DNA from: a virus
Lineage: Duplodnaviria; Caudoviricetes
Length of the DNA: 64,000 nt
Reading direction: 5' to 3' (one strand)
Virus record (IMG/VR): IMGVR_UViG_3300017716_001697
Coordinates: 1-64,000 of that record
Position numbers and translations under genes: made by a program
The notes under the pieces: generated by a model
Told to the model about the DNA's origin: nothing
Databases searched by the model: none
The model's input: the letters and a program-made list of their open reading frames with translations, nothing else
Part shown: piece by piece, positions 3,530-33,780 of the stretch
How positions within the stretch are numbered: the stretch's first letter is position 1
How the letters are laid out: each line of letters begins with the position of its first letter

Positions 3530-3685
3530 GTTGATCGCTGTGAAGCGTGATGGTTAGTGATAGTTAGTGTGGAATAAGAGCAGTAACCCTGCCCAGGAAA
3601 CGAGGTCCTGTCCCTGCACTTTAAACATGGGGAAAACGGGCGGTGACGAGGATGGCTTATCTTCTTGTAGATAAAAAAATTCGTC

Positions 3686-3755
3686 ATATTTAAATGCACT
3701 TAGGTTCGAATCCTACAGCGCGACGGCTGAAGTGGACAGCAGTGCATTTAAATAT
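3686..3755 (+). ncRNA. Permuted tRNA-elbow mimic
   Basis: 15-bp outer stem encloses T arm (TAGGTTCGAATCCTA) followed by D-like arm (GCTGAAGTGGACAGC). Confidence 0.55.
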
Positions 3756-3809
3756 ACACACTAGGAACCAAATGGGAGTGAAACGTCCGTGGCATAGTGT
3801 GTTGAATAT

Positions 3810-3896
3810 GGTGTAGCGATGCAGTTGGAGAGGCATGAGAGGCTGTAACCCTCTTTCCGTAAGGATGAATAGGTTCGAATCCTATATGCACCACCA
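3810..3896 (+). tRNA. tRNA-Tyr(GTA)
   Basis: Cloverleaf, loop CTGTAAC, long variable arm, CCA. Confidence 0.85.
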
Positions 3897-3902
3897 TATT
3901 TA

Positions 3903-3977
3903 GGGCTGTTAGTATAGATGGGAACACGATTGCCTTGCACGCAGTAATCCCCGGTTCGATCCCGGGACGGTCCACCA
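3903..3977 (+). tRNA. tRNA-Ala(TGC)
   Basis: Loop CTTGCAC, G3-U70, CCA. Confidence 0.9.
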
Positions 3978-4027
3978 CAACATGGCGCATTCATCTAAGC
4001 GTTTATATAAATTAGATGGCAAATTTT

Positions 4028-4102
4028 GGGCTGCTAGTATAGGGGGAATTATCACTGCCTTGCACGTAGTAGATCGGGGTTCGAGTCCCCGGCGGTCCAC
4101 CA
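4028..4102 (+). tRNA. tRNA-Ala(TGC)
   Basis: Loop CTTGCAC, G3-U70, CCA. Confidence 0.9.
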
Positions 4103-4111
4103 AGTTTCTAA

Positions 4112-4167
4112 AGAATGCGTTCTGCAAATAACAAAATTCAACTTTTAATTGAAAAATAAGCATTCTG
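4112..4167 (+). ncRNA. CAGCA-motif RNA with Lys(TTT)-like anticodon loop
   Basis: AGAATGC-G-TTCTGCA...GCATTCTG; inner TTCAA-CTTTTAA-TTGAA. Confidence 0.55.
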
Positions 4168-4176
4168 ATTTATTAC

Positions 4177-4251
4177 GCCTCGTTCATATAGTGGTTATTA
4201 TGATCGGCTGTCTACCGGTACATAGGGGTTCGATTCCCCTACGAGGCGCCA
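4177..4251 (+). tRNA. tRNA-Asp(GTC)
   Basis: Loop CTGTCTA, CCA. Confidence 0.9.
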
Positions 4252-4353
4252 GGTTCTTGCAAGAAGTAAAGAGGTACGGTGGTCCAGCGATGCGGGGACT
4301 ATAAAAGCCGATTGACACCTGGGGTAAAACTCCATACGCATCCCCAATTTTAA

Positions 4354-4408
4354 AGATTACCTACAGCAATTAAAAATTCACTGTAAATGAAACCAAATGT
4401 GTAATCTG
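4354..4408 (+). ncRNA. CAGCA-motif RNA with Tyr(GTA)-like anticodon loop
   Basis: AGATTAC-C-TACAGCA...GTAATCTG; inner TTCA-CTGTAAA-TGAA. Confidence 0.55.
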
Positions 4409-4418
4409 ATTTATTTTC

Positions 4419-4494
4419 GCTCTTTTAGTATAGTGGCTGATTATGACGGTTTTGTAGTCCGTAGACGGGAGTTCGATTCTCTCAAAGAGCACCA
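4419..4494 (+). tRNA. tRNA-Thr(TGT)
   Basis: Loop TTTGTAG, acceptor GCTCTTT/AAAGAGC, CCA. Confidence 0.85.
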
Positions 4495-4499
4495 GTTTT

Positions 4500-4690
4500 G
4501 TTAAGTATAAGGATGTTTCCACCGCCCATTGAAGGCGAAGAACTACTTAACGATGTTTTTTTAACTTAGTATACGGCACATCAGGTTAAGATGAATGCTA
4601 ACTCCAGGTATCGGGGTGTAAACTACTAAGTTAGGATTTTAATAAGAAATATATCAGTCGACTCTGAATCGAAAATCACTATTTCTTTAT
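4500..4690 (+). ncRNA. Three 'stem-TA...C-stem' tRNA-core mimics (4500-4551, 4563-4632, 4642-4690)
   Basis: Long inverted repeats enclosing TA...C; two contain Gln-like loops (CATTGAA, CTCTGAA). Confidence 0.5.
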
Positions 4691-4766
4691 CTCTCTAAAG
4701 TGTTATCTGGTTGCACTCGCCATTTGGGGTGGTGGGGTTTCGGTTCGAATCCGGATAGGGAGACCA
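4691..4766 (+). tRNA. tRNA-Pro(TGG)
   Basis: Loop TTTGGGG, CCA. Confidence 0.8.
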
Positions 4767-4773
4767 AATTTAT

Positions 4774-4847
4774 TGCCTTGTAGCTCAATGGTAGAGCATT
4801 CGACTGATAATCGAACGACGACGGTCCGATTCCGTACGAGGCAACCA
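4774..4847 (+). tRNA. tRNA-Ile(GAT)
   Basis: Loop CTGATAA, CCA; T-loop variant TCCGATT. Confidence 0.85.
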
Positions 4848-4863
4848 ATATAGAAAGTAAACT

Positions 4864-5100
4864 ATGGAATTAATAGGATGGATAGGCAGCGGCCTTTTAG
4901 CTCTATGCGCAATTCCACTAGCATGGGAGTGTTTTAAACAGAAACACGCTAATGGAATTTCAAATATGTTTATTGCAATGTGGATGCTAGGTGAATTATT
5001 AACCTTTGCTTACATACTGCCTAAACAAGATTACCCACTATTGCTTAATTACAGTTTAAACATTATATGTTTATTGGTTGTGATTAGGTACAAATTTTAA
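4864..5100 (+). CDS. PQ-loop/SemiSWEET-like small membrane protein
   Basis: Three hydrophobic helices; IGWIG...IPLAW...GIS...LLLNY pattern. Confidence 0.65.
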   Translation: MELIGWIGSGLLALCAIPLAWECFKQKHANGISNMFIAMWMLGELLTFAYILPKQDYPLLLNYSLNIICLLVVIRYKF

Positions 5101-9189: not shown

Positions 9190-9304
9190 AGGTTTGGTTC
9201 AGCAATAATTAAATTTTTTTCAACAAAAAAGGATCTGGGTTCGAATCCCAGCGGTAGATTTAGTCACTACTGTCGTCTAATGGTAGGATTTAAAAACAAA
9301 CCTG
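9190..9304 (+). ncRNA. CAGCA-motif RNA with YrlA-like permuted tRNA domain
   Basis: AGGTTTG-G-TTCAGCA...CAAACCTG enclosing T arm, looped acceptor hairpin and D arm. Confidence 0.65.
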
Positions 9305-13762: not shown

Positions 13763-13820
13763 AGACTACTTACAGCAAATTAAAATTTTAAATTGGTTTT
13801 AAAAAACAAAAAGTAGTCTG
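13763..13820 (+). ncRNA. CAGCA-motif RNA
   Basis: AGACTAC-T-TACAGCA...GTAGTCTG. Confidence 0.6.
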
Positions 13821-13950
13821 ATTTTTTTATATTGTTTCGGCAGGTTAGTCTGCGCCTCTTACGTGAGTAATGCAGGAAGGCACTGTCAGCATTATATACC
13901 TCATGGTTAGTATATAAAGTAGCTGCGATAACAAAGATGAAACAATTTTT

Positions 13951-14743: not shown

Positions 14744-14817
14744 GGGATTGTAATTCAATGGCAGAATATCCGGCTTTTACCCGGTCTACGAGAGTTCGAT
14801 TCTCTCCAGTCCTACCA
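14744..14817 (+). tRNA. tRNA-Lys(TTT)
   Basis: Loop CTTTTAC, CCA. Confidence 0.88.
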
Positions 14818-15451: not shown

Positions 15452-15514
15452 AGAATGCTTCCAGCAAATTCAAAAATTTCAAAACCATTATCTTTGAAAA
15501 GAAAAAGCATTCTG
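15452..15514 (+). ncRNA. CAGCA-motif RNA
   Basis: AGAATGC-T-TCCAGCA...GCATTCTG. Confidence 0.6.
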
Positions 15515-33352: not shown

Positions 33353-33669
33353 ATCCATATATCTACACATTCATCCGAGACGACATTTCGCCCGAGCAAA
33401 AGATCGTTCAACTCGGCCACGCAGCGTGGGAGGCAGGTTTGCGATTTAAGAAGCCGAATAAGATTGCAAGTCTTATCCTTTTACATGCAGATGATGAGGA
33501 TGACCTAGAGTCTATAGCACGCGAGTTAGACGAGAAAGGCATTGAATTTTACATGTTTTATGAGCCTGACAACATGATGGGCCACAGTGCTATATGTACA
33601 AGACCCATCACGACAGAATCTGAACGGCAAATATTCAGTAAGTGGGAACTATACAGCCACACCTATTGA
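33349..33669 (+). CDS. Peptidyl-tRNA hydrolase 2 (Pth2)-like protein
   Basis: IRDDIS...VQLGHAA...FYEPD...SAICTRP. Confidence 0.65.
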   Translation: MNPYIYTFIRDDISPEQKIVQLGHAAWEAGLRFKKPNKIASLILLHADDEDDLESIARELDEKGIEFYMFYEPDNMMGHSAICTRPITTESERQIFSKWELYSHTY

Positions 33670-33694
33670 CAGTAAACAAATGTGCATATACAAT
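33666..33694 (+). promoter_or_regulatory. sigma70 promoter of suppressor tRNA
   Basis: TTGACA-N17-TACAAT. Confidence 0.75.
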
Positions 33695-33704
33695 ATGCAC
33701 ACAT

Positions 33705-33780
33705 GCGCCTTTAGCTCAGTTGGTAGAGCAGCGGATTCTAAATCTGTAGGTCAGGGGTTCGAGTCCCCTATCGCGCACCA
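33705..33780 (+). tRNA. Amber-suppressor tRNA (CTA)
   Basis: GCGGA-TTCTAAA-TCTGT anticodon arm; canonical D and T arms; CCA; two acceptor mismatches. Confidence 0.8.

Follow-up and report, generated by a model that had tools for sequence, protein, structure and literature searches.

Anticodon-arm mimics among CAGCAA-handle RNAs linked to a Ro60-like phage protein

The first 64 kb of a phage genome from IMG/VR (IMGVR_UViG_3300017716_001697), referred to below as the window, contains two short elements, M1 and M2, which appear from their sequences to be small-RNA genes residing in an array of transfer RNA (tRNA) genes. Both are members of a large family of RNAs that share a constant element, called here the CAGCAA handle, and that are linked to a protein with DUF2828 and DUF7788 domains. 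It is very probable that each of these two RNAs carries a selected imitation of a tRNA anticodon arm, and the comparative data support well the proposal that anticodon-arm mimicry is a recurrent type of cargo among RNAs whose presumed partner resembles Ro60. A preliminary description of this DNA had interpreted M1 and M2 as anticodon decoys but overlooked the main context, which is that the handle marks partner RNAs of a Ro60-like protein. The quantitative survey of anticodon-type cargo reported here is also new.

M1 occupies positions 4112-4166 of the + strand (55 nucleotides) and M2 occupies positions 4354-4407 of the same strand (54 nucleotides). Two RNAs of ~55 nucleotides, each with a single inner hairpin whose loop is CTTTTAA or CTGTAAA, had been described previously, and these can be read directly at the two sites. 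In order, M1 is composed of AGAATGC, GTT, CTGCAA, a 9-nucleotide A-rich linker, TTCAA-CTTTTAA-TTGAA, AAATAA and GCATTCT, and M2 is composed of AGATTAC, CTA, CAGCAA, TTAAAAA, TTCA-CTGTAAA-TGAA, ACCAAATGT and GTAATCT. When written as RNA, the 3′ linker of M2 that is placed between UGAA and GUAAUCU reads ACCAAAUGU. The ends of each RNA are joined by a perfect terminal stem of 7 bp, which is AGAAUGC/GCAUUCU in M1 (arms at 4112-4118 and 4160-4166) and AGAUUAC/GUAAUCU in M2 (arms at 4354-4360 and 4401-4407), and an unpaired G follows each 3′ arm. The handle motif is located 3 nucleotides past the 5′ arm. M2 carries CAGCAA at this location (4364-4369), in line with the CAGCA motif that had been noted for both RNAs, whereas M1 carries the variant CUGCAA (4122-4127).

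The cargo of M1 is a 17-nucleotide hairpin, UUCAA-CUUUUAA-UUGAA (4137-4153), that mimics an anticodon arm of the Lys(UUU) type. This hairpin exhibits characteristics of an anticodon stem-loop, namely a 5-bp stem, a 7-nucleotide loop, a pyrimidine at position 32, U33, a purine at position 37 and a closing pair of the A31-U39 type, with the loop reading C32, U33, UUU, A37 and A38. The Tyr(GUA)-type hairpin of M2, UUCA-CUGUAAA-UGAA (4377-4391), exhibits the same characteristics except that its stem is 4 bp in length. In the minimum-energy fold of M2, the sequence CUGUA of the Tyr-type loop pairs with UACAG of the handle. This interaction was considered as a possible regular feature and was rejected, as other Tyr-type members of the family carry GUU-CAGCAA or CCGCAA handles.

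M1 lies between tRNA-Ala and tRNA-Asp, starting 9 nucleotides past the CCA of the former (which ends at 4102) and leaving a gap of 10 nucleotides before the latter (which starts at 4177), while the 3′ end of M2 is 11 nucleotides ahead of tRNA-Thr (which starts at 4419). The complete genome of this jumbo phage is 364,576 bp in length, has 41.6% G+C and direct terminal repeats, and carries 43 tRNA genes and a permuted transfer-messenger RNA, all of which are on the + strand according to ARAGORN. No tRNA is called at M1 or M2 by ARAGORN or by the Rfam tRNA model (RF00005), and acceptor, D and T arms are absent. Likewise, Rfam searches at gathering thresholds yield no match at M1 or M2, and a scan of positions 3600-4900 for sigma-70 promoters and intrinsic terminators yields no site at either RNA.

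The handle family was assessed by using 4.9 Mb of survey sequence, which comprises loci around 80 relatives of the Ro60-like protein, loci from three scans with handle patterns, and syntenic regions of close relatives. Individual loci or contigs of this survey are given L numbers (e.g. L053, L247). No close relative of the 364,576-bp phage is present in the GenBank phage collection. Closed handles are represented by 544 distinct examples in this material compared to 44 in the reversed sequence, and among RNAs of 40-80 nucleotides, which we call minis, the numbers are 222 and 5. The handle motif of the 222 minis is highly conserved (C100 A84 G100 C100 A100 A100, in percent), and a G is present immediately after the 3′ arm in 90% of them even though the search did not require it. 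When 74 RNAs are aligned, pairing of the outer stem is complete (100%), and four of the five base-pairs counted change on both sides. M1 and M2 conform to this architecture, as each has the 7-bp end stem, three bases (GUU and CUA, respectively), CNGCAA and the unpaired G thereafter. A covariance model (R1) trained on 71 handle RNAs from other phages, from which the copies in the window were excluded, recovers both RNAs at full length, with 65.2 bits (E 4e-12) for M1 and 49.6 bits (E 1.2e-8) for M2.

A T arm, an acceptor stem closed by a loop, and a D arm are found inside family members of L053, a 192-kb phage contig, where one of the RNAs yields a partial match to YrlA (28.6 bits). The handle RNAs are neither above threshold in Rfam nor described in the literature that we searched. 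Judging from these sequences, the family looks like a widespread and undescribed way to display parts of tRNAs.

The putative protein partner is encoded at positions 51302-52735 of the + strand and is 477 amino acids in length, with matches to DUF2828 (Pfam E 8.6e-27) and to the vWA-like DUF7788 (E 2.9e-51). Searches with phmmer against the sequences in the PDB returned only irrelevant weak matches, and therefore a search by fold was needed to assess the likeness to Ro60. The AlphaFold (AF2) model, made from an input alignment of 32 sequences, has a mean predicted local distance difference test (pLDDT) score of 79.7 and a predicted template modelling (pTM) score of 0.78. All of its 13 best PDB matches are Ro60/TROVE structures (E 2e-9 to 1.5e-5, template modelling scores of 0.46-0.61), including Ro60 of Thermus phage phiLo, Xenopus Ro with RNA and Deinococcus Rsr. 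The Pfam TROVE model finds nothing in the whole phage genome. The family to which the protein belongs has at least 8000 relatives.

Linkage of this gene to handle RNAs was evaluated with 344 phage loci that had been retrieved by handle patterns alone, without use of the protein. A Ro60-like gene is present within the ~10-kb locus in 39 of the 88 loci with at least two closed handles, compared to 1 of the 192 loci without a closed handle. In view of this association, of the bare handles in the leader of the gene itself and of the Ro60 fold, the protein is the presumed partner of the handle RNAs, and we judge it likely, with reasonable confidence, that M1 and M2 dock on it.

The evidence for anticodon-arm mimicry derives from the cargo of the minis. 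Most of these RNAs (183 of 222) fold to yield a single cargo hairpin, and the lengths of the loops peak sharply at 7 nucleotides (78 of 183). When 74 loops of 7 nucleotides were picked only by RNAfold, they were found to carry C (69%), U (86%), three variable nucleotides, A (85%) and A (81%). In 74 of the 222 minis, representing 54 loci, a CU-NNN-AA loop is closed by a stem of 4 bp or more, compared to 0.67 expected from shuffled cargo and 1.2 expected from pooled loop composition. Most of these mimics have a 5-bp stem (56 of 74), U39 (64 of 74) and an A31-U39 pair (about 63-64 of 74), and U36-A37-A38 is present in 53 of 74. In a MAFFT alignment of the inner stem, all five base-pairs vary on both sides, and the fifth pair, which was not a basis for selection, is paired in 56 of 73 RNAs. 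The loops that predominate among tRNA-Lys, Thr, Asn, Tyr, Arg-UCU and Ser-UGA genes of the same phages are identical to the common loops of the mimics, whereas the stems of the mimics are AU-rich compared to the 51-66% G+C of the tRNA stems. As a separate observation, many anticodon-type minis (e.g. in L393, L394, L399 and L360) extend beyond the 5-bp stem with an additional short helix, which creates a longer arm with an internal loop, as in UAC A UUUGA...UCAAA ACC GUA.

The hairpin of M1 is identical in its orthologue in L249, which retains CUUUUAA, and in phages whose Ro60-like proteins are only about 50% identical to the one examined here. The M2 hairpin is unchanged in a metagenome contig with ~91% identity, although the 5′ linker differs there. 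No run recorded as RNA was listed as containing the region itself. Wastewater runs labelled as RNA-Seq contain contigs, probably DNA, from a ~91%-identical relative, in which RNA ends are not visible.

In contrast to the frame of the loop, the anticodon triplet is not fixed. The positional orthologue of M2 in L247, which has the same linkers and the same UUCA/UGAA stem and is likewise ahead of tRNA-Thr, carries CUUUUAA, and another M2 orthologue (L239) carries CCGUAAA. RNAs of the M1 type that share the AAAUAA linker carry CUUGUAA in L248, L231, L384 and L448, and CUGUUAA in L237. Thus, of the proposal that M1 and M2 present Lys and Tyr anticodon loops, the anticodon-arm frame is retained as a selected feature, but a fixed Lys or Tyr identity is not supported by comparisons among orthologues. 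Free variation of the loops with no anticodon consensus, which the preliminary description had named as the outcome that would count against it, was not found across phages, as the C-U-NNN-A-A frame is kept.

Triplets in the 74 mimics are distributed unevenly, with UUU (23), UGU (13), GUA (7), GUU (5), UCU (5) and UGA (5) followed by a tail of others. Expected counts were derived from tRNA genes with the CU-NNN-AA frame, of which these loci contain 909 distinct examples. By this measure, and with p-values that ignore relatedness, enrichment is evident for Lys UUU (23 versus 3.4 expected, p 2e-13), Thr UGU (13 versus 2.9, p 6e-6) and Tyr GUA (7 versus 2.8, p 0.02), and depletion is evident for Met CAU (2 versus 7.6) and Trp CCA (0 versus 4.2). 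The ranking is preserved on single-linkage clustering at 80% identity (UUU 8, GUA 5, UGU 5, GUU 4).

The phage has its own genes for tRNA-Lys(UUU) (14744-14817) and tRNA-Tyr(GUA) (3810-3896). M1 and M2 are not copies of these tRNAs, as evident by the GC-rich arms of the latter and by their loops, CUUUUAC and CUGUAAC, which carry C38. This nucleotide is rare in the surveyed loci (3 of 46 Lys genes and 10 of 48 Tyr genes), and most of these tRNA genes have the canonical loop.

These features resemble several known systems in part. Like the Y RNAs YrlA and YrlB (RF02553) that associate with Ro60/Rsr, and like Yrl1 and Yrl2 of the Ro60 system of Thermus phage phiLo, the handle RNAs have paired ends that are predicted here to serve as a docking stem, as well as a distal tRNA-like module. 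Furthermore, in both cases the RNA genes occur beside a gene for a ring protein of the Ro60 fold and sometimes beside RtcB. Some differences are evident. The presumed partner has DUF2828 and DUF7788 domains and gives no match to Pfam TROVE, although its model matches Ro60 structures best, and the handle motif is CAGCAA (CNGCAA in M1 and M2) instead of the GNCGAA(N)G or CGAA of Y RNAs. Also, M1 and M2 have no domain made of T and D arms; they imitate the anticodon arm, which is the one part of tRNA that YrlA does not have, and they give no match to the Rfam YrlA model.

A second resemblance is to the dictyostelid Class I RNAs (RF01414; Kjellin et al. 2021, PMC7919456), which are 42-65 nucleotides in length and have a short terminal stem starting with G. 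Their 5′ arm is followed by a conserved 11-nucleotide motif that ends in ...ACAGCAA, then by a variable remainder and a 3′ end of ...CUG (PMC7919456). This layout of terminal stem, motif beside the 5′ arm and variable remainder matches that of M1 and M2. The RF01414 model aligns with M2 and M1 from end to end with 33.7 and 30.4 bits (E 8e-5 and 6e-4 in a 341-nucleotide search), which is below the gathering cut-off of 41.5 bits. In contrast to the Class I RNAs, M1 and M2 are from a phage rather than an amoeba, and the context of a DUSE promoter about 60 nucleotides upstream is absent; M1 starts 9 nucleotides past a tRNA. Class I RNAs have been reported to be unique to Dictyostelia, and no Ro60-like partner is named for them (PMC7919456).

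Mimicry of an anticodon arm outside of a tRNA has a precedent. The operator of the Escherichia coli thrS mRNA contains an anticodon-arm mimic that is bound by threonyl-tRNA synthetase (ThrRS). As in that operator, a hairpin of M1 and M2 copies an anticodon stem-loop for a protein that reads tRNA, although the binder is only proposed for the phage RNAs. The thrS operator is a cis-acting translational element recognized by one synthetase, whereas the handle RNAs would be free-standing molecules on a protein handle with interchangeable triplets.

A biological context for these triplets is provided by anti-phage defense. The preliminary description correctly cited tRNA-Lys(UUU) as a target of PrrC (PMC10264068) and PARIS (10.1101/2025.02.04.636281), and tRNA-Tyr as a target of a retron PtuAB system (PMC11555353); it also named colicin E5 as a nuclease of tRNA-Tyr. 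The AriB nuclease of PARIS cleaves tRNA-Lys(UUU) as well as tRNA-Thr(UGU) and, to a lesser extent, tRNA-Asn(GUU), reading U36-A-A-U39 and additionally requiring a C40|A41 site and the D loop (10.1101/2025.02.04.636281). PrrC cuts tRNA-Lys (PMC10264068), and PtuAB of retron-Eco7 depletes tRNA-Tyr (PMC11555353). The overlap between these targets and the favored triplets of the mimics is striking, and we view it as circumstantial support, drawn from sequence comparison, for a decoy role. Phages are known to counter such systems with tRNA-Lys, tRNA-Thr and tRNA-Asn of T5 against PARIS, with tRNA-Tyr of T5-like phages against retron-Eco7, and with loop variants (PMC11464382, 10.1101/2025.02.04.636281, PMC11555353, PMC10264068). 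These anti-defense tRNAs and the mimics share the same identities (Lys UUU, Thr UGU, Asn GUU and Tyr GUA) and both occur in phage tRNA arrays, and we propose the same counter-defense logic for the mimics. However, the former are complete tRNAs that serve as decoding replacements, whereas M1 and M2 cannot decode and could act only as bait.

Damage to anticodons can also be countered by ligation. The phage encodes a full-length RtcB RNA ligase (genome positions 212603-213940, outside the window, in locus L480; Pfam E 7.5e-129), which is about 160 kb from the Ro60-like gene. In 4 of the 63 loci from prokaryotic assemblies, RtcB is directly beside a Ro60-like gene and handle RNAs (L509, L541, L482 and L524, on contigs labelled Gammaproteobacteria, Endomicrobium, Lentisphaeria and Clostridia, respectively). 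Parallels include the repair by T4 Pnkp and Rnl1 of tRNA-Lys cut by PrrC and the rsr-yrlBA-rtcBA operon of bacteria such as Salmonella (PMC7790460), systems that bring together anticodon damage and an RNA ligase and, in the bacterial operon, a Ro60 particle. Unlike in that operon, RtcB and the Ro60-like gene are adjacent only in genomes other than the one studied here. We view the RtcB gene of this phage, and the position of RtcB beside Ro60-like genes elsewhere, as further circumstantial support for a decoy role.

The explanation that we tentatively favor as a whole, while holding its chances to be slightly short of even, is that M1 and M2 are modular handle RNAs on a Ro60-like ring whose mimic is bound by a reader of anticodon loops. 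M1 and M2 would be cut from the long tRNA transcript of the phage as small non-coding RNAs. Their constant handle, consisting of the 7-bp stem that joins the ends, a spacer of three bases, the motif C(A/U)GCAA in single-stranded form and the unpaired G past the 3′ arm, would dock on the Ro60-like ring protein in the manner that a Y RNA stem docks on Ro60. The variable 17-nucleotide imitation of an anticodon arm would then be held out on A-rich linkers, just as other cargos would present imitations of the T, acceptor and D half of a tRNA. The mimic may serve as a ligand for a protein that recognizes anticodon loops of the type C-U-(U/G)-(U/G)-U/A-A-A (Lys, Thr, Asn, Tyr). In the setting of a phage, the likeliest binder would be a tRNA-cleaving defense nuclease of the host, for which the RNA would serve as bait, competitor or sentinel, perhaps acting together with the RtcB ligase of the phage. 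We consider a bait or sentinel role against anticodon nucleases to be possible but, on balance, unlikely. Somewhat more doubtful still is the extended version, in which evolvable RNA baits on the Ro60-like ring offer Lys, Thr, Asn and Tyr loops to anticodon nucleases of the host or of rivals, thereby soaking up or reporting these enzymes while RtcB reseals the damage. If this version were correct, the fast switching of triplets from one related phage to another would follow the specificities of the defenses that are met.

Several observations weigh against the favored explanation. The isolated hairpins are thermodynamically weak, with fold z-scores of -0.8 for M1 and -1.1 for M2, and in the case of M2 the hairpin is missing from the minimum-energy fold. 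The case that these hairpins exceed chance is a comparative one. Regarding the triplets, Asn GUU is not enriched (5 versus 4.9 expected), kinship was handled by clustering alone, and UUU, UGU, GUU and GUA are single-step neighbors in AU-rich sequence, such that part of the skew could be mutational. Most mimics lack the full AriB site, U36AAUC|A41, which is complete in a few (e.g. L192), and mimics may not be PARIS substrates because most are without the D-loop contacts and C40|A41. We also considered an arrangement in which the phage pairs hardened tRNAs of its own with soft decoys. This scheme fits only the C38 of this phage, as most of the surveyed phage tRNAs share the canonical loops of the mimics, and it was rejected. 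Finally, a 522-kb contig of Chloroflexi bacterium 54-19 (L505:7386-10308) carries a Ro60-like gene, three handle RNAs, one of which has an Asn-type arm (UCAC-CUGUUAA-GUGA), and an HNH endonuclease gene. This locus is situated among peptidase and peptide ABC transporter genes, and the 8 kb around it are free of phage genes. From its gene content, the system seems to exist here in a cellular, or small-island, form. Therefore, the design is not exclusive to phages and a general role in RNA surveillance is possible.

The Chloroflexi locus is also among the points that favor a different function, in which the anticodon-arm module tethers the Ro60-like ring to an enzyme that handles tRNA, so that the ring would survey or repair tRNAs in both phages and bacteria. 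By analogy with complexes of Ro60, Y RNA and PNPase, the tethered enzyme might be an aminoacyl-tRNA synthetase, a modification enzyme of the t6A, i6A or queuosine type, an RNase or RtcB. The trinucleotide U36-A37-A38, a determinant for t6A, is common among the mimics as noted above, and RtcB is adjacent in the four loci already named. Moreover, tethering is an established function of Y RNAs and YrlA is a mimic of tRNA (PMC4201824), and a phage Ro60 with Y-like RNAs binds host PNPase (PMC12135203). However, the triplet differs between close orthologues, which would be odd for a tether to a single unchanging enzyme, except one that recognizes the frame alone, and we regard this adaptor function as a minority possibility of perhaps one in several. 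Less probable again is that the likeness is structural only, where a U-turn loop and a 5-bp stem contact the Ro60-like protein or particle with no tRNA-binding factor involved, and where the resemblance to particular anticodons arises from copying of tRNA genes and AU-rich drift. Such an origin could account for triplets that are not conserved among orthologues, for favored triplets that are mutational neighbors, and for the presence of other cargo classes (AUUGG loops and 9-nucleotide loops) that are not anticodon-like. It accounts poorly for retention of C32-U33...A37-A38, A31-U39 and the 5-bp stem, which goes far past the needs of a generic hairpin, for mimic loops that exactly match real tRNA loops, for sister cargos that copy other tRNA parts, and for a triplet skew that is strongly unlike tRNA gene frequencies.

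The close spacing of M1 and M2 to the neighboring tRNAs, at 9-11 nucleotides, and the AU-rich 3′ flank GAUUUAUU, which resembles an RNase E site, would also be expected if the hairpins simply punctuate the tRNA transcript, either as spacers that direct cleavage by RNase E, RNase III or RNase P or as weak terminators or stabilizers, with no function as free RNAs. We find this very unlikely, given that the same handle closes RNAs of 95-216 nucleotides with promoter-like upstream sequences of their own and also occurs in the leader of an mRNA at a great distance from the nearest tRNA. Furthermore, no terminator-like or promoter-like site was called at M1 or M2, and signals for processing leave the conserved CAGCAA, the linkage to the Ro60-like gene and the anticodon frame unexplained. 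The low z-scores of the single sequences would be compatible with functionless hairpins that arise by chance in AT-rich DNA or from decayed tRNA fragments. That explanation has almost no standing when confronted with the comparison to shuffled cargo, the covariation, the E-values from the leave-out model and the conservation across phages with divergent Ro60-like proteins. Other ideas that were entertained early in the analysis, namely a phage promoter, a nut/put-like antiterminator, a miniature inverted-repeat transposable element, and remnants of a permuted tRNA or of a bulge-helix-bulge intron, were dropped once the link to the Ro60-like protein and the many cargo types became apparent. A self-cleaving ribozyme was dropped following the same link, as the likeness of CUGAU to a hammerhead is only partial.

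Particles composed of Ro60 and Y RNAs span from animals to bacteria, and here nothing but an anticodon arm seems to remain of the tRNA-like module, with a triplet that is evident from the sequence. Since this module is found repeatedly in diverse phage contigs, the question of what binds it is directly testable. The findings connect the Class I RNAs known from social amoebae, an extensive family of DUF proteins, and defense by cutting of tRNA-Lys, Thr, Asn and Tyr. If the RNAs do prove to be bait, they would represent a new kind of anti-defense that parallels, at the level of RNA, protein mimics such as Ocr, and a function in the arms race between viruses and hosts would be assigned to a Ro60-type particle for the first time. 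If instead they are adaptors, they would show how a Ro60-type ring is aimed at tRNA.

The same phage carries additional handle RNAs. A pattern for the 5′ module yields seven copies genome-wide, all on the + strand and within the first 52 kb, compared to none in the control. All seven copies are closed by a perfect 7-bp stem, and the four variable bases differ from copy to copy. With the addition of the RNAs at 9190-9303 and 50324-50446, the phage has at least nine handle RNAs, whose cargos range from none to that of a 216-nucleotide RNA. Two of them, M3 (13763-13819, +) and M4 (15452-15513, +), are minis whose cargo classes, as judged by sequence, are not anticodon-like, and these have lower R1 scores than M1 and M2 (44.3 and 38.4 bits). 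M3 holds AAATTGGTTTT, has a fold z-score of -3.5 and belongs to an AUUGG-type loop class that is also found in L016, L082, L182 and other loci. The copy at 13763 had been described as a weak mimic of a Pro anticodon loop; the sequence is indeed present, but it represents this separate, conserved AUUGG/AUGGA loop class. M4 represents a third class with the 9-nucleotide loop ACCAUUAUC, which is identical in L250 and is related to ACNNNNAUC loops in many phages. Between M3 and tRNA-Met is a stretch of ~110 nucleotides (13838-13950, +) that opens with CGGCAGG. This heptamer repeats the 3′ acceptor strand of the same tRNA-Met, with whose 5′ end the stretch could pair.

A larger cargo is carried by the 114-nucleotide RNA at 9190-9303 (+), which is closed by AGGUUUG...CAAACCU, has the handle GUU-CAGCAA and includes a look-alike of a T arm, CUGGG-UUCGAAU-CCCAG. 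This RNA was the sole candidate kept from a relaxed regular-expression scan of the genome, which was noisy (654 matches compared to about 250 in controls). The RNA also holds a U/A hairpin and a further stem-loop, giving it a YrlA-like cargo that corresponds to the upper half of a tRNA.

Four more handle RNAs, all on the + strand, cluster ahead of the Ro60-like gene. A 216-nucleotide RNA (50058-50273) just upstream of the gene has a homologue in the 385-kb phage G001 (L135), and a 95-nucleotide RNA (50710-50804) has a perfect closing stem. The RNA at 50324-50446 has a CAGCAG variant of the motif and TTGACA about 40 nucleotides upstream; the covariance model was the only search to detect it (R1 25.9 bits, E 0.002). 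A bare handle without cargo (51255-51287) resides in the leader of the Ro60-like gene and is followed by a ribosome-binding site and ATG, a layout that is equal in L166, L173, L176 and L177. An Rfam search of 49800-51500 gave no match even at E 5.

Several minor observations concern other parts of tRNA-rich regions. The tRNA region of the 192-kb phage contig described above has a weak match to the manA RNA motif (L053:7493-7714, -; 23.2 bits, below the cut-off). Within the window, positions 33615-33780 include a handle-like AGAAUCU-GAA-CGGCAA with a closing GGAUUCU, and this element overlaps the start of a predicted suppressor tRNA (anticodon CUA; Pyl according to ARAGORN). At positions 3686-3757 (+), a perfect 14-bp stem (AUAUUUAAAUGCAC / GUGCAUUUAAAUAU) surrounds the T-loop-like sequence GGUUCGAAUCC, with a fold z-score of -5.2. 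Here CAGCA is beside the 3′ arm rather than the 5′ arm, and the element may be a rotated relative of the handle RNAs or another RNA derived from part of a tRNA.

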